32,000 nt of DNA from Candidatus Brocadia sp. (GCA_021650915.1 CP091279.1:420001-452000), one strand, 5' to 3'. Positions 2,344-22,006 are shown, counted from the stretch's first letter. The notes: a model not told the origin generated them from the sequence alone. Translations and numbers: made by a program.

Positions 2344-3722
2344 TAGAACAATTTGGCAATATTTTTCGAATACCAGAGTTACGTAAGAAGGTATTAATAA
2401 CCCTTGGGCTTATAGCATTGTGTCGTGTGGGAGTTTACATACCAATCCCTGGAATTGATACTACAGTATTAAAATCATATTTTCAACAATTTACCCAAAC
2501 GGGTGTTGGCCAGTTATTGGGGCTTGTTGATATGTTCGCGGGTGGCGCACTGACCTCTGGTGCAATATTTGGCTTGGGGGTTATGCCATATATAAGTGCT
2601 TCTATTATTTTTCAGTTATTAGTTGGTGTAGTGCCGTATTTGGAGAGATTGCAGAAAGAAGGTGAAGCGGGAAGGAAGAAAATTAATCAATATACCAGGC
2701 TGGCCACAGTGGGTTTATGCCTCTTTCAGGCGTTCGTGATGACGCGAACACTCTATACTGTCGAGTTTAACGGAATGCCTGTCATTCCCGTTTATTTACA
2801 GGGGATTAGTTTCCAAATGATGGCTGCGCTTCTCTTGACGACAGGGACGATGACACTTATGTGGATTGGTGAGCAAATTGAAGAACATGGTATTGGAAGC
2901 GGGATATCTATTGTTATTATGGTTGGTATTATAGAACGCTTGCCTTGGGCTTTTTCACAGGTAATGCAGAGTTTTACCTTTTCTGTTACTCCTGCTGAGC
3001 ATCAAATTGGTATTGTTAAATTAATTGTGCTCTTAGGAATGTTTTTCGCTATCGTTGGCGGAGTAGTGTATATTACCCAAGGACAAAGACGTATTCCCGT
3101 ACAGCAGGCAAAGCACACACGCGGCAGAAAAGTGTACGGAGGACAACGACATTTTTTACCGCTCCGTGTGAATCAGGCCGGGGTCATGCCTATCATATTC
3201 GCACAGTCGCTTCTTATTTTTCCAGCAGCCATTATGCAGGGAATTCAAGTAAGATTTGAGCCTGGCAGTTTTGGTTATTGGATTACTTCCCGATTATCTG
3301 AGGTTTTGCAAGGTGGCGTTATTTATGTTGTGCTGTATGTCCTTCTTATAACATTTTTCTGCTATTTTTGGACTGCCATACAGTTTAATCCGAAAGAGAT
3401 GTCGAATAATATGAAAGACTACGGAAGTTTTATCCCTGGAATTCGACCTGGTCATAGAACGGCTGAGTACTTGGAAGGGATTATGGGAAAAATTACCTTG
3501 GCGGGTGCTGCCTTTCTGGCTCTGATTGCAATTCTGCCAAAACTTGTAGCAGGTGGCTTTGAGCTTAATAGGGCAATAGCAGGTTTTTACGGAGGCACCG
3601 GTTTGCTCATCATTGTGGGTGTAGCTCTCGATATGGTGCAGCGGATAGAATCCCATATGATAATGAGACAGTATAGCGGTTTCCTGAGCGGTGGAAGTAG
3701 AATTCGGGGAAGAATGGGATGA
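2340..3722 (+). CDS. secY: preprotein translocase subunit SecY
   Basis: 460-aa polytopic membrane ORF with SecY motifs (GI.PYI.ASII.QLL, GE.I.E.GIGNG.S..I). Lies in the canonical position after rplO and overlaps both neighbours by 4 nt. Confidence 0.97.
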   Translation: MIEQFGNIFRIPELRKKVLITLGLIALCRVGVYIPIPGIDTTVLKSYFQQFTQTGVGQLLGLVDMFAGGALTSGAIFGLGVMPYISASIIFQLLVGVVPYLERLQKEGEAGRKKINQYTRLATVGLCLFQAFVMTRTLYTVEFNGMPVIPVYLQGISFQMMAALLLTTGTMTLMWIGEQIEEHGIGSGISIVIMVGIIERLPWAFSQVMQSFTFSVTPAEHQIGIVKLIVLLGMFFAIVGGVVYITQGQRRIPVQQAKHTRGRKVYGGQRHFLPLRVNQAGVMPIIFAQSLLIFPAAIMQGIQVRFEPGSFGYWITSRLSEVLQGGVIYVVLYVLLITFFCYFWTAIQFNPKEMSNNMKDYGSFIPGIRPGHRTAEYLEGIMGKITLAGAAFLALIAILPKLVAGGFELNRAIAGFYGGTGLLIIVGVALDMVQRIESHMIMRQYSGFLSGGSRIRGRMG

Positions 3723-11729: not shown

Positions 11730-11953
11730 GTGCGAGATAGGCGTGCCTTGAAGTATGGAATACCTGAGTGGTTGAAAATACCATCTCTGCGAGCCTAAGT
11801 CCTCGTAGAGAAGTTTGTACCTATGCGTATACAAAGGAGCAATCCGTGTGCGTAGAAGGATAGCGTATTCCCGTGAGGGGTATGACGGAGTTACGAGGTA
11901 CAGACGACCTTTTGGGGTGCATGAGTATGGCGTATTAGTTCGTGCCGACTGCC
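11730..11953 (+). mobile_element. group II intron 5'-end fragment (first 224 nt, + orientation)
   Basis: Begins GTGCGAGATAGG (GUGYG consensus). Positions 11741-11953 are the reverse complement of 17597-17809, with 8 mismatches in 213 by my manual alignment. That partner segment is the 5' domain-I region of the full-length minus-strand intron. The fragment stops abruptly at ...GACTGCC. Confidence 0.8.
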
Positions 11954-12951
11954 AGCTGGTAGGAAGGAGGCGAATCGCCTCCAACCCCCAATCGTCGCCA
12001 GATACTTTGGACAACGTGACAAAGTATCCTTTTAAACCATACGGCTTTCCCGTAGTTAGCGACCCCATAGTGTTGCTCTGGAGCAGAGAAAAGTAAACTA
12101 TCATGCCTTTGCACGTGCCTTAAGAAATTCTCTTTCAAATGAGAGTAACCCCATCTTAAAGAATCGGTGTACCGGGAAACGTTTGTTGTCAGTTTTCCAT
12201 TTTCTCGAAAACTTGAAACTTCTCAGTCTCATGCGTACCCAGCAGTCTAACGAGCGATATACCGTTTGTACATTGCCCAGCCGAAAATAGTTGACATGTC
12301 CCCTTATGACAGGATTTAATGTATCAATGACGGCTTGCAGGTTGACGCCTTGTGTGCGTTTGGTGATGTCTCTAACGGCGTCCTTGAGTTTGTCCAGGGA
12401 TTTCATGCTTACACCCTTGTCCTTGCCCATGAAATTATATCCGAGAAACCGGAAGCCTCGTTTGAAGTTGGTGAGCCTGGTTTTATCCTCGCTCAGCTTC
12501 ATTTCAAGTTTCCCTTCGATGATTTCTTTGACGTACTGAAGGGCGGCAGGGAGTTCTTCTTTCGTTTTTATCATGACAACGAAGTCATCGGCATAGCGGA
12601 CAAATTTATATCCTGCCTTTTCAAGCTCCTTGTCGATGATGTCACCGATAAGGTTTGCAAGCAAGGGGGATATGACGCCTCCTTGCGGAGTGCCTTGATT
12701 TGTCTCGTGCACGATGCCGTCCTCCATGACCCCTGCCTTGAGCATGTTCTCGATACTGTTCAACACCCATCCGTCAGCGATTTTCTCACGCAAGGAGTTC
12801 ATGATAAGCTTATGAGGTATGGTGTCATAGAACGCCTTTATATCGGCGTCCAAAATGTTCCGATACCCTTGCTGCTTATACTGTTCAATCCGTTTGATAG
12901 CATCATGACAGCATCTGTTTGGACGAAATCCAAAGCTGTTATCCGAGAATT
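11954..12951 (-). mobile_element. group II intron 3' partial copy, tandem unit 1 (998 bp: 147-nt 3' RNA domains plus distal 2/3 of the RT ORF)
   Basis: Near-identical to 15807-16804. Starts AGCTGGTAGGAAGGAGGCGAATCGCCTCC and ends CCGAGAATT. Confidence 0.9.
12101..12951 (-). pseudogene. 5'-truncated group II intron RT/maturase (lacks RT domains 0-2)
   Basis: Reading frame colinear with residues about 106-388 of the 388-aa RT (YADD, X/maturase domain). The track ORF 12101-12853 starts at a Leu-to-Met change. There is no upstream RT N-terminus. Confidence 0.9.
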
Positions 12952-13051
12952 AGTTGGTAGGAAGGAGGCGAATCGCCTCCAACCCCCAATCGTCGCCAGA
13001 TACTTTGGACAACGTGACAAAGTATCCTTTTAACGGATGTTCACCTCAAGG

Positions 13052-13079
13052 CAAAAAACAAAAAGGCTGCGAAAGCCTT
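13052..13079 (-). terminator. hairpin plus U-run just inside the IS-A end, downstream of the transposase stop
   Basis: The minus strand reads AAGGCT-TTCGC-AGCCTT followed by TTTTGTTTTTTG. Confidence 0.55.
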
Positions 13080-13083
13080 AATT

Positions 13084-14738
13084 TTACTGGCTTATTTGTT
13101 GCCTGGTAAGTTTTTTTCTCGTGACTACCCGTAGGTTCCGGCTTGGCAATGCCTCCGGCAGCTTTACCTGCAATGCCTCTAACAATTCACGTGATTGTTG
13201 CCGTGGACGTGGTATCTTCTGGCAATGCGCCTTTTGACCCTTCACCTTCACTTCCACGGAACAAATGGTAGTCAATTGTTTGAGTCCTTCCTCTACCGTC
13301 AGATCAAAACTCTTCCACGCATCACGTAACCTTCGGATTATCAGGTACGCAAGCATTACCACAAACACATGCCCTTTTGTACTCTCTTCTTTCCTCACGT
13401 ATACAGGACGAACCTCAAGATTCACCGTCTTGCACCCCCGAAACACCTTCTCCACCTCTGACAAGTCCTTGTACCGGTCGTGCACCAGATCGGCATCCGC
13501 ATCGCCCTCCTTCAGATCGGTCTTGATTACATAACATCCATCAAGATACGATTCTTCCTTGAATGCTTCTTCATTGTTCTCAATCTTCAGCGCCCCGGCC
13601 TCGTCTTTTATCTGCACCCACCCCTCAAGCTTCAGCTTCCCGAGCTTCTCCTTCGCTGCCCCCAGCGCCTTCAATACCGATGCCTTCGGATGTTCTCTCA
13701 AATAACCATTCCTCTTCTCGACATATCTCTCCATACTCTGTAATTTTGACATGCGAGTCTTCGCCATCTCTTCTGCCCTTATCGGATTGCGTCTCAGAAT
13801 ATACCGAACCCCCTCACTCTTTATCTCGCAGAGCTTTTCTTCAAACAACCCTAACTGCAGAATCCCTTGTTTTATCAACGACTCGATCTGCGGCTTGGTT
13901 ATCGCCGTTATGTAATGAAACCCCTCCGGTAAACATTCGATTTGCATCGTCTTGATCATCCCCCGATCACCTACCATGGTCACCCCGGTGCACCCAAACC
14001 GTTCTGCCGTCTTCTTTACCTGAGACTCAAAGGTCTTTGGGTCCTGAGTATTGCCCCGAAAAACCTCCGTGGACACCGGCTCCCCAAATTCATCACACAG
14101 CATACCAATCACGATCTGCTTCTTCCCCTTCTTGCCGTCACGATTATACCCGTACTCACCAAAACGATTCTGCTCCCCTCCAGATAACTGCTCGTCACGT
14201 CATACAGAAACAGCTTCGGCTTCTTGCCTGCCCGTCTTGCCTCAAACAACGTTCGCTCTATCCTCGCCTGTTGCTCCGATAACCACGATAAATTATCGTA
14301 GAGATCATTCTCGTCGAACCCCCGCTTCATACCCAGCACATCACCCGCTGCATGCACATGCGCCAGCCGCACCGCCGAGAGTCTTGACCCCTGATTTATC
14401 ACCCGCGCCATTACCTGCCACAGCGCCAGTCTCCCTTGAAAATCCTTCCCCAACGCCTCCTCTATCCCTAATTCCTTTGCCACCTGGTACACACTCCAGA
14501 TCGCCCCCACGGACATCCCCTCCTGGAGTTCCACCGATCCTGACAATGCCCCCAATGCAGTGAGATCCTCTTTATGGCTGAGGGCAAGCTTTATCGCTTC
14601 TATCTCCCGCGATGTGCAGTTCGACAGATTTGCAATGGTACGCTTCCTGACCTTTCCGCCTTCCCGATACGATTCCCGCAAAAGAATGGAGCGATAGATT
14701 TTTTTGCCGGATTTTGATTTGTTTTCCACAATATGCAT
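13084..14738 (-). pseudogene. IS1634-family DDE transposase, split by a 1-nt frameshift
   Basis: The N-terminal ORF 14109-14738 ends ...YDVTSSYLEG. The C-terminal ORF 13084-14112 is in another frame. Slipping -1 at the G4 run (14175-14178) restores LEG-EQNRFGEYGYNRDGKKGKKQIVIGMLCDEFGEPV, the family-typical linker. Confidence 0.85.
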
Positions 14739-14955
14739 GTCTACTATAATATACTATATTATTCAACATTTCAAGCACATTATTGAATAATAACAATATA
14801 TTAGTGACTACATAATTGCAGACAAAACCACACTAACTACCAATATATTAAATACTTACGTGGTTTGCTTGGGGTGAACATCCGTTTTAAACCATACAGC
14901 TTTCCCGTAGTTAGCGACCCCATAGTGTTGCTCTGGAGCAGAGAAAAGTAAACTA

Positions 14956-15806
14956 TCATGCCTTCGCACGTGCCTTAAGAAATTCTCTTTCAAATGAGAG
15001 TAACCCCATCTTAAAGAATCGGTGTACCGGGAAACGTTTGTTGTCAGTTTTCCATTTTCTCGAAAACTTGAAACTTCTCAGTCTCATGCGTACCCAGCAG
15101 TCTAACGAGCGATATACCGTTTGTACATTGCCCAGCCGAAAATAGTTGACATGTCCCCTTATGACAGGATTTAATGTATCAATGACGGCTTGCAGATTGA
15201 CGCCTTGTGTGCGTTTGGTGATGTCTCTAACGGCGTCCTTGAGTTTGTCCAGGGATTTCATGCTTACACCCTTGTTCTTGCCCATGAAATTATATCCGAG
15301 AAACCGGAAGCCTCGTTTGAAGTTGGTGAGCCTGGTTTTATCCTCGCTCAGCTTCATTTCAAGTTTCCCTTCGATGATTTCTTTGACGTACTGAAGGGCG
15401 GTAGGGAGTTCTTCTTTTGTTTTAGTCATGACAACGAAGTCATCGGCATAGCGGACAAATTTATATCCTGCCTTTTCAAGCTCCTTGTCGATGATGTCAC
15501 CGATAAGGTTTGCAAGCAAGGGAGATATGACGCCTCCTTGCGGAGTGCCTTGATTTGTCTCGTGCACGATGCCGTTCTCCATGACCCCTGCCTTGAGCAT
15601 GTTCTCGATACTGTTCAACACCCATCCGTCAGCGATTTTCTCACGCAAGGAGTTCATGATAAGCTTATGAGGTATGGTGTCATAGAACGCCTTTATATCG
15701 GCGTCCAAAATGTTCCGATACCCTTGCTGCTTATACTGTTCAATCCGTTTGATAGCATCATGACAGCATCTGTTTGGACGAAATCCAAAGCTGTTATCCG
15801 AGAATT
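14956..15806 (-). pseudogene. 5'-truncated group II intron RT/maturase (second fragment)
   Basis: Same truncation point as 12101-12951. It differs from the other copies by a few scattered substitutions (D/N, I/T, A/T). Confidence 0.9.
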
Positions 15807-17809
15807 AGCTGGTAGGAAGGAGGCGAATCGCCTCCAACCCCCAATCGTCGCCAGATACTTTGGACAACGTGACAAAGTATCCTTTTAAACCATACGGCTT
15901 TCCCGTAGTTAGCGACCCCATAGTGTTGCTCTGGAGCAGAGAAAAGTAAACTATCATGCCTTTGCACGTGCCTTAAGAAATTCTCTTTCAAATGAGAGTA
16001 ACCCCATCTTAAAGAATCGGTGTACCGGGAAACGTTTGTTGTCAGTTTTCCATTTTCTCGAAAACTTGAAACTTCTCAGTCTCATGCGTACCCAGCAGTC
16101 TGACGAGCGATATACCGTTTGTACATTGCCCAGCCGAAAATAGTTGACATGTCCCCTTATGGCAGGATTTAATGTATCAATGACGGCTTGCAGGTTGACG
16201 CCTTGTGTGCGTTTGGTGATGTCTCTGACGGCGTCCTTGAGTTTGTCCAGGGATTTCATGCTTATACCCTTGTTCTTGCCCATGAAATTATATCCGAGAA
16301 ACCGGAAGCCTCGTTTGAAGTTGGTGAGCCTGGTTTTATCCTCGCTCAGCTTCATTTCAAGTTTCCCTTCGATGATTTCTTTGACGTACTGAAGGGCGGC
16401 AGGGAGTTCTTCTTTCGTTTTTATCATGACAACGAAGTCATCGGCATAGCGGACAAATTTATATCCTGCCTTTTCAAGCTCCTTGTCGATGATGTCACCG
16501 ATAAGGTTTGCAAGCAAGGGAGATATGACGCCTCCTTGCGGAGTGCCTTGATTTGTCTCATGCACGATGCCGTCCTCCATGACCCCTGCCTTGAGCATGT
16601 TCTCGATACTGTTCAACACCCATCCGTCAGCAATTTTCTCACGCAAGGAGTTCATGATAAGCTTGTGAGGTATGGTATCATAGAACGCCTTTATATCGGC
16701 GTCCAAAATGTTCCGATACCCTTGCTGCTTATACTGTTCAATCCGTTTGATAGCATCATGACAGCATCTGTTTGGACGAAATCCAAAGCTGTTATCCGAG
16801 AATTCTTTCTCGAATATTGGCTCTATGATTTGTCTGAACGCCTGCTGTACTACCCTGTCCTTGACAATGGGAATGCCAAGAGGTCTCTTGCCATGCCTGC
16901 CTTTGGGAATGTAGACCCTTAAGACGGGCGCAGGGTTGTATATGGCGGTTTTCAGTTCCTTGTGAATAGCTTGTAGATTATTCTCAAGGTCACTTTCAAA
17001 CTGCTTAATACTTACCCTGTCGAGACCAGCCTTGCCTTTATTCTTCTTTACGTGCCCAAAAGCCGCATAAAGGTTTCTCAGACTGAATACCTTGTCTCTT
17101 AAAGAATGATACTTAAGCATCTCCCGATATGTTCCTTTTGATTGATTCCGGATAATAGACTTGTCAATCGTGTTTCCTGAGTCGAGATTCCTCCTGACAG
17201 AGGCAAAACAAGAGAGGCTCTTGCTACTACTTGCCCATGCAAAGAGTCTCTTTTCTCATGGAACGTATTCAATCTACCACGTTTCATCAACTCCACTACG
17301 GTTATGCCCCTTCATTCCTGGTACACACCAGAAACTATTATGAGCACTGCTGACGACTTCAAAGACAGACCTGTGAGAGCCAGTCGTCTGTCACCATCTC
17401 ATACAGCTTGGATTTCGGATTTCCCTTATACCTCGCTGTTAGGGAATTTCTTCCCAAGACGTAAGTCCTCCCCCGGTCATATGAATTACCCCTTTTCCCT
17501 TCGTGATGTATGTTCAAACGCATTATCCAGAGATGTTTTCACCTGGTCTCTTTTGACATCTCCAACAAGGACATTGTCAGTGCTTCACTGAGAAAGGGCA
17601 GTTGGCACGAACTAACACGCCATACTCATACACCCCAAAAGGTCGTCTGTACCTCGTAACTCCGTCATACCCCTCACGGGAATACGCTATCCTTCTACGC
17701 ACACGGATTGCTCCTTTGTATACGCATAGGTACAAACTTCTCTACGAGGATTTAGGCTCGCAGAGGTGATATTTTCAACCACTTAGGTATCCCATACTTC
17801 AAGGCACGC
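15807..17809 (-). mobile_element. group II intron, only copy with complete ORF and domains I-IV (about 2.0 kb)
   Basis: Layout: 147-nt 3' region, ORF 15954-17120, then 689 nt of 5' structured region. In the minus-strand reading, the last nucleotides fold as a GC helix with a bulged A 7 nt from the end (...CCUUCCUACCAGCU). The 5' boundary abuts an IS-A fragment and lacks the GUGYG seen in the 11730 copy. Confidence 0.85.
15954..17120 (-). CDS. group II intron-encoded reverse transcriptase/maturase (388 aa, no endonuclease domain)
   Basis: Motifs NKGKAGLDRVS, RVYIPKGRHGKRPLGIP...DRVVQQA, SFGFRPNR, DADIKAFYDTI, GTPQGGVISPLLANL and YADDFVV, followed by a maturase X-like NP.IRGHVNYF. The ORF ends without HNH/En motifs. 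Confidence 0.95.
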   Translation of the reverse strand: MLKYHSLRDKVFSLRNLYAAFGHVKKNKGKAGLDRVSIKQFESDLENNLQAIHKELKTAIYNPAPVLRVYIPKGRHGKRPLGIPIVKDRVVQQAFRQIIEPIFEKEFSDNSFGFRPNRCCHDAIKRIEQYKQQGYRNILDADIKAFYDTIPHKLIMNSLREKIADGWVLNSIENMLKAGVMEDGIVHETNQGTPQGGVISPLLANLIGDIIDKELEKAGYKFVRYADDFVVMIKTKEELPAALQYVKEIIEGKLEMKLSEDKTRLTNFKRGFRFLGYNFMGKNKGISMKSLDKLKDAVRDITKRTQGVNLQAVIDTLNPAIRGHVNYFRLGNVQTVYRSSDCWVRMRLRSFKFSRKWKTDNKRFPVHRFFKMGLLSFEREFLKARAKA

Positions 17810-18110
17810 GTCTCTCCATATAACTGCTCGTCACATCATACAAAAACAGCTTCGGCTTCTTGCCTGCCCGTCTTGCATCAAACAACGTTCGCTCTATCTT
17901 TGCCTGATGCTCCGATAACCACAATAAATTATCGTAGAGATCATTCTCGTCGAACCCCCGCTTCATACCCAGCACATCACCCGCTGCAGGCACATGCGCC
18001 AGCCTTACCGCCGAGAGTCTTGACCCCTGATTTATCACTCGCGACATTACCTGCCACAGCGCCAGTCTCCCCTGAAAATCCTTCCCCAATGCCTCCTCTA
18101 TCCCTAATTC
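17810..18110 (-). mobile_element. internal fragment of a second IS-A copy (transposase residues about 95-190)
   Basis: Colinear with 14185-14480 of IS-A (ELGIEEALGKDFQGRLALWQVM.RVINQGSRLSAVRLAH...LFLYDVTSSY). It is cut on the left by the intron and on the right by IS-B. Confidence 0.88.
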
Positions 18111-19681
18111 GTGTTTGAACGGAACCCCCCCCCAGAGCCCTGTAAAGTAAGGAGAAGCTGGTGAAAAATGTTCATGAAAGTCATTGAATTTTTTCGGGTA
18201 AAAGGGTAAAATATGGCGAAAATGAAGGGATTCTGGGTATAAAGAGTCCAAATATTCGGTTCATTAACCCACTAGCCAAAGGACATTCGATAGAAGATGA
18301 GAAAGAGATTTGAGCAGCAATTGAAGCTTGGCATCATACCCATTTCAGGGGTAAAACTGCCAATAAAGAGTCGAGATGAGCTACCACCGATACTGAGGGC
18401 GTTGCAACATATCTATGTTACACCGGAGTTGAACGAGGAGGTATTCCGGATATTAGAGGCGAAGGTAACGAAGGGGAAGAAAAAGACGGGAAGATATGGG
18501 ATGGATTTATGGCATATTTTGGTGTTGTCGGTGGTAAGATTAGGGTTAGATGCCGATTATGACAGGTTGGAGGATTTTGCCAACCATCACAAACTTATCA
18601 GGCAGATAATGGGGGTTGAGACGGCATTTGGAGAGGCGAAGGTTTTTTCGATGCAGAGCATCAAGGACAATATAAGATTGTTGGATGAGGAGACCCTCAG
18701 GCAGATAAATGAAGTGGTGATATCATCGGGGCATCAGTTGGTTAAAAAAAAGGACGAAGGACTGTGTATTAAGGTGGATACGTATGTGTTAGAGACGAAT
18801 GTACACTTTCCGACCGATATGAATTTATTGTGGGATGCGGGACGCAAGAGTCTGGACATGATAGAGGATGCAATAGAGGAAGGCATCCTGGCGGGGAAAG
18901 GATGGCGCAAGAGCAAATATTGGAGGAGAGAGTTAAAAAAGCTGATGAGGATAAGCGCAAAGGCGTCAAGCAGCGGGGGGAAAAACAAGGAAGAGCATGT
19001 GAGGAGTTACTTGGAATTATCGAGGGGTTTGAATGAAAAGATAGGAGCGAGTCTGTTAGCCATCTACGAAAAGGTGCTAACGACGAACCAGGTAGACAAG
19101 CATGCAGGGAAAATAGGGACACTGGAGTATTTTCACGGGATGTTGAATAAACAGATAGACCTGGTGGAGAGAAGGGTGATCCGGGATGAGGTAATACCGG
19201 CGGCAGAAAAGGTTCATTCGTTGTTTGAGCCGCATACGGAGTGGCTGTACAAAGGCAAGTCAAACAAAAGGGTAGAGTTGGGACATAATATTCTGGTAGC
19301 AAGCGATCAGTGGGGTTTCATCGTGGACCATGTGGTAGGAGAAAAACAGGCGGATGTATCGTTGGTAATTCCATTGGCAGATAGGTTGTTGAGCCGTTAC
19401 GGAGAAGGCACAATAAAGAGTATAAGTTTTGATAAAGGTTTTTACAAGAAAGAGAATAAAGAGTTGCTGAGTTTGTATATACCAGAGGTAATCCTTCCCA
19501 AGAAGGGCAAGAAGAATAAGGCGGAACAGGAAGAGGAATCGGGTAAGACATTTAAGAAGCTAAGGCACAAGCACTCGGCGGTAGAATCGGATATCAATCG
19601 TTTGGAGCATCACGGCTTGGATAGGTGTCCGGACAAAGGGCTGCATGCCTTTAAAAGATATTGTGCAATGGGCGTGTTAGC
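18111..19681 (+). mobile_element. IS-B copy 1 (3'-truncated by IS-C); DDE element of the IS5/IS1182-like superfamily, exact family uncertain
   Basis: The left end GTGTTTGAACGGAA is shared with copy 2 at 20158. Colinear with copy 2 up to ...GGGCGTGTTAGC. The remaining roughly 325 bp of the element are absent. Confidence 0.85.
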
Positions 19682-19760
19682 CCGACTTTCGCAATTCGCG
19701 CCCGAAAAAGGTTATTTTTGGGCAAGAGTCGCCAGGAAACCCGTGAAATTCAAGGGGTGA
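18297..19760 (+). pseudogene. IS-B transposase with chimeric C-terminus
   Basis: DDE-type contexts DTYVLETNVHFPTD, SFDKGFY and SAVESDINRLEHHGLDRC. The last 26 or so codons (RLSQFAPEKGYFWARVARKPVKFKG) are read from the IS-C terminal repeat. The authentic tail, seen in copy 2, is AANLHKLGNVLQEKARKQCEKLRKAA. Confidence 0.8.
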
Positions 19761-20157
19761 ATTTTCAAAACGGCTTGTAGTGCCGACCTACCCTCTTGAC
19801 GCATGCAGGGGGAAGTGCGAAAATGCTCGCATGCTTCTCCGGGAAAAGACACGAACGAAAGATGGAAAAACCCACCGTTATTGGAGCATGGTAGAGAACC
19901 GCCGGGTCAGCGGAAGAAGGGTGGTGCAACGGCAGGTTCTCTATTTGGGAGAACTCAATGACAATCAACGGGCTGGGTGGATTCGGACGATAGAGGCGGT
20001 GTCGGGTAAAGAACCGAAACCAAGACAACTGGCATTGTTTCCGGATGACCGGGAAGCCATGCCGATACCGGATGGTGAGACAGTTCGGGTGAGGTTGGAC
20101 AAAATAGAGCTGCGCCATCCACGGGAGTGGGGAGCAAGCTGGTTGGGATTGTATGTA

Positions 20158-22006
20158 GTGTTTGAACGGAAACCCCCCAGAGCCCTGTAAAGTAAGGAGA
20201 AGCTGGTGAAAAATGTTCATGAAAGTCATTGAATTTTTTCGGGTAAAAGGGTAAAATATGGCGAAAATGAAGGGATTCTGGGTATAAAGAGTCCAAATAT
20301 TCGGTTCATTAACCCACTAGCCAAAGGACATTCGATAGAAGATGAGAAAGAGATTTGAGCAGCAATTGAAGCTTGGCATCATACCCATTTCAGGGGTAAA
20401 ACTGCCAATAAAGAGTCGAGATGAGCTACCACCGATACTGAGGGCGTTGCAACATATCTATGTTACACCGGAGTTGAACGAGGAGGTATTCCGGATATTA
20501 GAGGCGAAGGTAACGAAGGGGAAGAAAAAGACGGGAAGATATGGGATGGATTTATGGCATATTTTGGTGTTGTCGGTGGTAAGATTAGGGTTAGATGCCG
20601 ATTATGACAGGTTGGAGGATTTTGCCAACCATCACAAACTTATCAGGCAGATAATGGGGGTTGAGACGGCATTTGGAGAGGCGAAGGTTTTTTCGATGCA
20701 GAGCATCAAGGACAATATAAGATTGTTGGATGAGGAGACCCTCAGGCAGATAAATGAAGTGGTGATATCATCGGGGCATCAGTTGGTTAAAAAAAAGGAC
20801 GAAGGACTGTGTATTAAGGTGGATACGTATGTGTTAGAGACGAATGTACACTTTCCGACCGATATGAATTTATTGTGGGATGCGGGACGCAAGAGTCTGG
20901 ACATGATAGAGGATGCAATAGAGGAAGGCATCCTGGCGGGGAAAGGATGGCGCAAGAGCAAATATTGGAGGAGAGAGTTAAAAAAGCTGATGAGGATAAG
21001 CGCAAAGGCGTCAAGCAGCGGGGGGGAAAAACAAGGAAGAGCATGTGAGGAGTTACTTGGAATTATCGAGGGGTTTGAGTGAAAAGATAGGAGCGAGTCT
21101 GTTAGCCATCTACGAAAAGGTGCTAACGACGAACCAGGTAGACAAGCATGCAGGGAAAATAGGGACACTGGAGTATTTTCACGGGATGTTGAATAAACAG
21201 ATAGACCTGGTGGAGAGAAGGGTGATCCGGGATGAGGTAATACCGGCGGCAGAAAAGGTTCATTCGTTGTTTGAGCCGCATACGGAGTGGCTGTACAAAG
21301 GCAAGTCAAACAAAAGGGTAGAGTTGGGACATAATATTCTGGTAGCAAGCGATCAGTGGGGTTTCATCGTGGACCATGTGGTAGGAGAAAAACAGGCGGA
21401 TGTATCGTTGGTAATTCCATTGGCAGATAGGTTGTTGAGCCGTTACGGAGAAGGCACAATAAAGAGTATAAGTTTTGATAAAGGTTTTTACAAGAAAGAG
21501 AATAAAGAGTTGCTGAGTTTGTATATACCAGAGGTAATCCTTCCAAGAAGGGCAAGAAGAATAAGGCGGAACAGGAAGAGGAATCGGGTAAGACATTTAA
21601 GAAGCTAAGGCACAAGCACTCGGCGGTAGAATCGGATATCAATCGTTTGGAGCATCACGGCTTGGATAGGTGTCCGGACAAAGGGCTGCATGCCTTTAAA
21701 AGATATTGTGCAATGGGCGTGTTAGCTGCGAATTTGCACAAGCTGGGAAACGTGCTGCAGGAGAAGGCACGGAAGCAGTGCGAAAAGTTGCGAAAAGCCG
21801 CCTAAGCAAGCAAAAAACACGAAGAAAAACAGTCTGCCGGGAGGCAGGTACGCCCAGACAAGGCTAAAATAAAGGGGAAAACAAGGGAAATATGTAAAAG
21901 AACAGTATTTTTGCCAAAAACCCTAATCTCAAATCTTAAAATTATCTATTGGTAAATAGAAAATCGACCTCGCACTTTTACAAAAAGTGCGTTTTCGTTC
22001 AGACAC
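20158..22006 (+). mobile_element. IS-B copy 2, full length (1849 bp)
   Basis: IRs are GTGTTTGAACGGAAAC and, as reverse complement of the right end, GTGTCTGAACGAAAAC. The 6-bp TSD TATGTA lies at 20152-20157 and 22007-22012. A 9-bp-stem hairpin plus T-run sits just inside the right end (about 21970-21995). Confidence 0.92.
20342..21805 (+). pseudogene. IS-B transposase with two homopolymer frameshifts
   Basis: Relative to copy 1 there is G7 instead of G6 at about 21019-21025, and CC instead of CCC at about 21545. This splits the gene into track ORFs 20342-21082 and 21045-21608 plus a tail that ends at TAA 21803-21805. Confidence 0.88.

Follow-up and report, generated by a model that had tools for sequence, protein, structure and literature searches.

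Probable insertion of a group II intron into the strand opposite its own exon-binding site in Candidatus Brocadia

In the genome of Candidatus Brocadia sp. (an anammox planctomycete), a nest of mobile elements fills positions 11.7–22 kb of the 32,000-nt stretch analysed here (GCA_021650915.1 CP091279.1:420001-452000; hereafter the window), and three times in this nest the 3' end of a group II intron directly abuts the interior of another copy of the same intron. This raises the question of how an intron comes to land in its own DNA and what designates the sites that it uses. According to our analysis, the heptamer GAGAAAG at positions 17590–17596 is probably complementary to exon-binding site 1 (EBS1) in a mobile, endonuclease-less group II intron of 2003 nt, and the junction found on the antisense strand was presumably produced by retrohoming. 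The intron family is shown to pick its DNA targets mainly via a duplex of 6–7 bp between EBS1 and intron-binding site 1 (IBS1), at the end of the 5' exon.

The layout of the locus was derived from a repeat map and from a BLAST search of the window with the most complete intron copy as query. This copy, termed A (15807–17809, minus strand), is full length (2003 nt, GCGUGCC...CCUACCAGCU, with boundaries set by relatives and by a junction in another species described below), and is probably a recombinant of nested copies. It is followed by the 3' part of copy B (14885–15806, minus strand; 98.2% identical to A), which runs from intron nt 1006 onward and starts exactly at a site within the intron's open reading frame (ORF). 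An insertion sequence (IS; 13034–14884, minus strand), with the terminal inverted repeat (TIR) CGGATGTTCACC and the target-site duplication TTTTAA, splits copy B near domain V, and the last 82 nt of this copy (intron nt 1922–2003) lie at 12952–13033 (minus strand), their 3' end abutting AATTCTCGG of copy C. Copy C itself consists of a 3' part only (11954–12951, minus strand; intron nt 1006–2003; 99.0% identical to A), the 3' end of which abuts the antisense strand of fragment D (11741–11953, plus strand). The latter comprises intron nt 1–213, ends at the nucleotide just before EBS1, is 96.2% identical to the same intron segment of copy A by BLAST (window 17809–17597), and appears in the repeat map as a 95% inverted repeat with 17597–17816.

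Three junctions of two kinds can thus be compared, and all exist as the original prediction had described them: the intron 3' end (...CCTACCAGCT) abuts AATTCTCGG at 15806/15807 and, with an AACT variant, at 12951/12952, while it abuts GGCAGTCGG at 11953/11954. The positions of copy A equivalent to these flanks are preceded by ..TTCGAGAAAG on the minus strand and ..CACTGAGAAAG on the plus strand, both ending in GAGAAAG (16805–16811, minus strand; 17590–17596, plus strand), and the heptamer occurs once per strand in the intron. In the whole window it is found seven times vs. 6.0 expected from shuffles (~1e-4 per position, or ~6 per 64 kb), and the chance probability that two unrelated junction sites share it is near 1e-4, in line with the earlier estimate of about 4^-7. 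The minus-strand occurrence (intron nt 999–1005, encoding part of the peptide EPIFEKEF) is a homing site of the ORF, GAGAAAG/AATTC (slash, insertion point), which is unoccupied in copy A, has been used twice in the window (12951/12952 and 15806/15807), and was used once independently in Ca. Brocadia pituitae. The DNA around it forms a perfect palindrome, CGAGAA-AGAA-TTCTCG (16795–16815, minus strand), with the site in the loop; this palindrome is also picked up by a spurious Rfam match to mir-9428. The plus-strand occurrence is opposite the sequence 5'-CUUUCUC-3' of the intron RNA (intron nt 214–220; 17590–17596, minus strand). Since the antisense strand opposite an EBS1 is complementary to it by definition, it is a perfect IBS1 mimic, unoccupied in copy A and represented in the window by the junction of copy C with fragment D at 11953/11954. 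Intron DNA therefore holds exactly two perfect IBS1 heptamers, one in the sense strand of the reverse transcriptase (RT) ORF and one antisense to EBS1, and both have been used. Insertions of the antisense type would be recognizable by the junction strings CTACCAGCT/GGCAGTYGGCAC and CACYGAGAAAG/GYGTGCC.

Assigning CUUUCUC to a position in the intron depends on the 5' boundary, which had been placed at GTGCGAG (11730), 11 nt too far upstream. This candidate was ruled out, as relatives share sequence only from GYGTGCC: genomic and metagenomic relatives are alike only from G(C/T)GTGCCTTGAAG onward, with unrelated flanks upstream. The true 5' end is GCGTGCC, at 17809 (minus strand) and 11741 (plus strand), which yields the length of 2003 nt, and because it lies 11 nt inside GTGCGAG, CUUUCUC corresponds to intron nt 214–220 and not to nt 225–231 as first thought. 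For the same reason, the real 5' exon of fragment D ends in the IBS1-like GAGATAG (11734–11740, plus strand; 6/7 pairs with EBS1), within the decoy GTGCGAGATAG. In this stretch (GTGCGAGATAG/GCGTGCC; 11730–11745, plus strand), a chance GTGCG of the 5' exon copies the canonical start 11 nt upstream of the real GCGUG; such a decoy misleads boundary calls, whether automated or by eye, and the boundaries of this intron are now corrected. The intron begins with GCGUG in the window and with GUGUG in several relatives (loci L001, L087, L160 and L166–L174), the canonical form being GUGYG. At the other end, the intron terminates in ..ACCAGCU instead of AY, and relatives with 40–48% RT identity terminate in ..CCCUAU. 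Both termini are fixed by the ORF site, which reads TTCGAGAAAG/AATTCTCGG when intact, ..TTCGAGAAAG/GCGTGCC at the 5' junction of Ca. B. pituitae (locus L006), and ..CCAGCT/AATTCTCGG at the 3' junctions of the window. Taken together, ..GAGAAAG/GCGTGCC in the former and ..CCAGCT/AATTCTCGG in the latter show a precise insertion without target-site duplication. Locus L160 (112–147) carries, immediately before a full copy that begins with GTGTGCC, a repeated 18-nt piece of the intron's 5' end (GCGTGCCTTGAAGTATGG), and the outer flank, GGGGTTG, shows a 6/7 fit to the EBS1 of that intron (CAUCCCC).

Is CUUUCUC really EBS1? The original prediction had left EBS1 and EBS2 as options, and a location in a paired helix would have spoken against both. 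In the minimum free energy (MFE) fold of the single sequence, as in the RNAalifold consensus of 11 family members, CUUUCUC lies in the terminal loop of a domain I hairpin (GUGCC-AACUG-[CCCUUUCU]-CAGU-GAA-GCAC; intron nt 202–230; 17580–17608, minus strand), where CCCUUUCU is enclosed by ACUG/CAGU and, further out, by GUGC/GCAC. The consensus pair 212–223 is UA in five members, UG in four and CG in two, and locus L166 has compensatory changes in both stems (ACUA/UAGU and GUGU/ACAC). Moreover, the EBS1 loop is the most variable stretch of domain I, which is otherwise ~85–90% conserved. 

This variability allows exon pairing to be compared across natural insertions. When the last 7 nt of each 5' exon were matched to the resident EBS1, with 199–286 control windows per site drawn from the same flanks, 5–7 pairs were obtained in 11/13 junctions, against control means of 1.9–3.6. 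In a larger set of 22 independent junctions with nine EBS1 variants, to which exact-protein look-ups contributed extra loci, pairing with the own EBS1 averaged 5.95/7 vs. 4.29 for cross-paired combinations, a value reached by none of 20000 permutations (0/20000), and exon position −1 paired with EBS1 nt 1 in 22/22 cases (C-G 13, G-T 4, G-C 3, A-T 2). Natural 5' exons thus end in GAGAAAG-like purine runs that match EBS1 and covary with its variants: GUGACUC goes with GGGTCGC (7/7 pairs), AUUUCUC with GAGGGAT (7/7), CACACCU with AGGAGTG (6/7) and CUGACCC with GGGCCAG (6/7). Of the two options, EBS1 is therefore the one that stands, as a domain I loop pairing with the 5' exon end, in keeping with a group II intron. 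The two outcomes that the original prediction had named as refuting it, CUUUCUC in a paired helix or natural insertions with unrelated 5' exons, were thus both checked, and neither was observed. The EBS1 variants also supply a set of naturally retargeted EBS1/IBS1 pairs for a compact intron with a 388-aa RT.

Beyond IBS1, little else in the targets is shared. Insertion takes place directly after IBS1, usually before A (+1 = A at ~20/28 sites). By eye, exon positions −8 to −14 showed neither conservation nor a consistent complement in the variable domain I loops, i.e., no sign of an IBS2/EBS2 pair. Among 12 folded sites, none of the 11 other natural family sites had an upstream hairpin above shuffle level, the antisense site being the exception; an upstream hairpin was accordingly discarded as a general target determinant, the flanks folding no better than shuffles. 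In the absence of IBS2-like conservation and of a general upstream hairpin, recognition seems dominated by EBS1.

With these elements in hand, the antisense junction would be explained by an intron ribonucleoprotein (RNP) that reverse-spliced into D on its bottom strand, immediately behind GAGAAAG. The geometry of the junction is consistent with such an event, since nt 213, the last of D, directly precedes EBS1, and copy C is attached there on the opposite strand by its 3' terminus; we infer an RNP whose EBS1 equalled that of D. An insertion at this point would split domain I and thereby inactivate the struck copy, while creating an inverted repeat. As for the ORF site, a three-level nest would have the order C(1–1005) B(1–1005) A(1–2003) B(1006–2003) C(1006–2003), and homologous recombination between the direct 5' repeats would then leave a single full copy with 3' parts in tandem behind it, as seen. 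The 5' halves and 5' junctions that are now absent were presumably removed by such recombination between nested direct repeats. A later rearrangement would have joined copy A to an IS fragment: its 5' flank (17810–18110, minus strand, from the repeat map) comes from the interior of another copy of the IS found in copy B, where a nested copy is expected to be flanked by outer-intron sequence. This flank is no true homing site, as intact copies of the IS read GGAGGGGAG there and not GAGAGAC, and a further rearrangement is implied because it is internal to the IS and mismatched at −1. GAGAGAC would fit an intron of the GUUUCUC type 7/7.

Nesting of this kind is not restricted to the window. In Ca. 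B. pituitae (L006 2306–5313; AP021856.1, 1643390–1652553, reversed), a twintron at the ORF site retains the intact 5' junction GAGAAAG/GCGTGCC and has lost the 3' half of the outer intron, giving [1–1005][1–2003], the mirror image of the arrangement in the window. A third intron-in-intron site of the family is found in another genome (L162, ERZ26222911 ctg820089; 1–120 and 1790–1945), in which an intron with EBS1 GUGACUC directly precedes domain I nt ~161–273 of another copy; it is a sense-strand insertion after ..GAGGUAC, with 6/7 pairs to the EBS1 of the invader. Altogether, intron termini lie inside another intron at an EBS1-matching site at 12951/12952, 15806/15807 and 11953/11954, in L006 and in L162. 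A suspected location of locus L003 in the same IS as in the window, based on the shared GGGATAGAGGAGG, was dismissed when BLAST found no further homology.

Several observations weigh against retrohoming opposite EBS1 as the origin of the antisense junction. D no longer has its EBS1 segment, nor is the corresponding 5' junction preserved, which leaves the target heptamer to be deduced from paralogue A, and the +1 position of the antisense site is G and not A, even though this G may wobble-pair with U. Five GAGAAAG sites in the window are unoccupied; since five are empty at a density of ~6 perfect heptamers per 64 kb, the 7-mer alone is insufficient for targeting, and RNP proximity to its own locus, strand accessibility or protein contacts may contribute to the clustering of insertions inside intron copies. 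The 5' flank of copy A (17810–17816, minus strand), GAGAGAC in the IS fragment (also delimited as 17814–18110), has an unexplained mismatch at −1, being alone among 23 junctions in leaving exon −1 (C) unpaired with EBS1 nt 1. Finally, the antisense event is a single case: no inverted domain I copy was detected beside 174 related loci, mostly short contigs breaking at repeats, either with an nhmmer domain I profile or by BLAST for self-inverted repeats.

At face value, the antisense site might owe its use to a hairpin, with the IBS1 match secondary, as in class C (IIC) introns, which use such a geometry at terminators. The antisense strand of the EBS1 stem does fold into CAGTG-CTT-CACTG, a DNA hairpin whose end lies 6 nt short of the insertion point (−9.1 kcal/mol for the flank vs. 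−5.8 for shuffles), the RT of the intron is closest to IIC RTs, and in Desulfosarcina alkanivorans the relatives with 40% RT identity are all inserted 2 nt downstream of a long perfect hairpin. Yet the 11 other family sites mentioned above have no hairpin that exceeds shuffles, whereas EBS1–IBS1 covariation accounts for site choice across the family, and a hairpin could at most supplement IBS1 pairing, not substitute for it; we consider this explanation improbable.

Two others would deny that the junctions are insertions at all. The locus is heavily rearranged by IS elements, with 5' halves lost, and the heptamer occurs at chance frequency in the window, so the junctions could be breakpoints of illegitimate or homologous recombination that match the heptamer and the domain I loop by coincidence. 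This is very improbable, as the exact intron 3' terminus is found at all three junctions, chance would place the 7-mer at a second site with a probability of only ~1e-4, and the same ORF junction exists independently in another species with an exact 5' terminus; the covariation over 22 sites in the EBS1 pairing tests effectively refutes it. An assembly artefact, in which near-identical repeats were collapsed or chimerically joined and both the tandem 3' parts and the inverted junction would be spurious, is suggested by repeats that are 98–99% identical over ~1 kb, which are hard for assemblers, and by most metagenome contigs of the family breaking at intron ends. Still, point substitutions distinguish the three copies A, B and C, an IS flanked by its target-site duplication is present in B, the junctions are base-precise at biologically meaningful positions, and an equivalent structure is present in the complete genome of another species (L006), all of which makes an artefact highly unlikely.

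Retrohoming guided by EBS1 is thus retained as the probable explanation for the window, with both predicted perfect sites used, which provides a sequence-level rule for the landing of an EBS1-driven intron in its own DNA. The broader proposal that intron copies in opposite orientation would be built-in targets of one another fared less evenly: one junction falls exactly at the EBS1 boundary, but with a single event the antisense route is not shown to be general. That such 'cannibal' insertion recurs in EBS1-reliant introns, every copy offering a bottom-strand target, capping copy number and seeding inverted repeats, is in our view rather doubtful. If it did recur, the tendency of short-read assemblies to break at these junctions would explain why it has escaped notice; it would act as a built-in negative feedback on intron copy number via the split domain I, and it would be a source of inverted repeats driving rearrangements in intron-rich genomes such as those of anammox bacteria.

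The 3' region of the intron is unusual. Domains V–VI (15811–15916, minus strand) comprise a domain V-like helix, apparently of normal length, at 15916–15847, with an inserted hairpin (15882–15853) in its 3' strand, and a domain VI at 15842–15811 with a bulged A at −7, as expected of group II introns. At gathering thresholds and at E<=10, Rfam yielded only a weak D1D4-1 match in the window, while the domain V/VI model RF00029 had no match in the window, L001, L002 or L006 and did match the more distant relatives tested; this miss is due to a non-canonical domain V, not to the absence of the intron. Our domain V model was built by hand on an alignment of 15 members, the same structure being seen in L001, L002, L004, L083–L088 and L160–L168. 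It reads GUCGC-U-AAC / UACG / GAAA-containing loop / CGUA / bulge UG / GUU ... GGCGAC, i.e., a lower helix of 9 bp with CGC, a UG bulge, an upper helix of 4–5 bp and a loop of 5–7 nt, the register of the triad being uncertain. The insert is a ~35-nt hairpin with a conserved GUUGUC loop, in which 8/10 pairs show compensatory changes. In the pair count, 97.6% of the alignment cells pair, with 11 compensatory pairs, vs. 35–44% in slid controls. As the family is evidently mobile, domain V with its inserted hairpin appears functional, which flags a family whose unusual domain V is missed by standard covariance models.

The encoded protein (15954–17120, minus strand; intron nt 690–1856) is a 388-aa reverse transcriptase/maturase without endonuclease domain, with Pfam matches to RVT_1 (2.3e-40) and GIIM (5.8e-15), i.e., the RT and maturase (X) domains expected in domain IV of a group II intron. 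It is 98% identical to a protein of a Ca. Brocadia sp., and searches for proteins exactly matching P0001 or the window RT returned nothing. Its best relatives among solved structures are the GsI-IIC RT (5.6e-79) and the E.r. IIC RT, a closeness judged against solved structures only, which include no class A, B, D, E or F RT.

Concerning the remainder of the nest, the region 18111–22005 holds two copies of a further IS (TIR GTGTTTGAACGGAA, DDE_Tnp_1 transposase, spacing 2045 nt), one of which is broken by another IS-like end at ~19680. The 3' exon of fragment D was not located because this region is a graveyard of IS and introns. In Ca. Kuenenia hertensis, the related intron is interrupted elsewhere (L060 1907–3759, intron nt ~452) by an IS 81% identical to that of copy B.

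Set against known systems, the Brocadia family has its nearest RT sequences in class C (GsI-IIC and E.r. IIC; PDB 6AR1, 7UIM), with which it shares the lack of an endonuclease domain and, as far as inspection of the flanks shows, of EBS2/IBS2. Hairpin-following insertion is a further likeness, seen in its relatives with 40% RT identity: in D. alkanivorans (NZ_AP021874.1, L061–L067 ~3480–3560), a long near-perfect palindrome (GGAGCGGCTTCCAGCCGCGAT...ATCGCGGCTGGAAGCCGCTCC) lies 2 nt upstream of each of the seven copies of such an intron, which is class C-style hairpin targeting of a repeated element. In contrast, the EBS1 of the Brocadia family pairs over 6–7 bp, whereas it is shortened in IIC introns, described as being without part of EBS1 (PMC3753933); its sites have no conserved upstream hairpin, and the Brocadia intron has a 5' ribozyme part of ~690 nt and an inserted hairpin in domain V. 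Given the long EBS1 and the missing hairpin, the family is not filed as IIC here.

Self-nesting of group II introns is already known, while insertion antisense to EBS1 is apparently undescribed: no antisense or EBS-strand target was found in the literature, in which Dai & Zimmerly (2003) was available through reviews, so that a prior description is possible. As summarized in those reviews (PMC4424553, PMC2882425), introns of Methanosarcina acetivorans home repeatedly into related introns, a process balanced by recombinational deletion. They resemble the Brocadia case in their site-specific homing into related introns, including the RT ORF, and in forming nested arrays that involve no host gene and are trimmed by homologous recombination. 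According to the same reviews, insertions there are sense-oriented into ORFs, whereas one of those in Brocadia is antisense and exactly opposite EBS1; moreover, the Brocadia host is bacterial and the intron lineage different. The twintrons of Thermosynechococcus elongatus (Mohr, Ghanem & Lambowitz 2010, PMC2882425) likewise recognize their target mostly by base pairing, but they involve ORF-less CL/IIB introns with EBS1, EBS2 and EBS3, inserted in sense orientation between two ATGs of the outer intron ORF. In plant mitochondria, an intron 'invading itself' (Zumkeller, Gerke & Knoop 2020, PMC7049729) also has a copy in its own paralogue, with the EBS–IBS fit discussed; this case differs in being organellar and sense-oriented, with degenerate 'zombie' inner introns and no mention of an antisense or EBS-strand target. 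To the sense-strand route to twintrons known from these systems, the Brocadia locus adds an antisense one.

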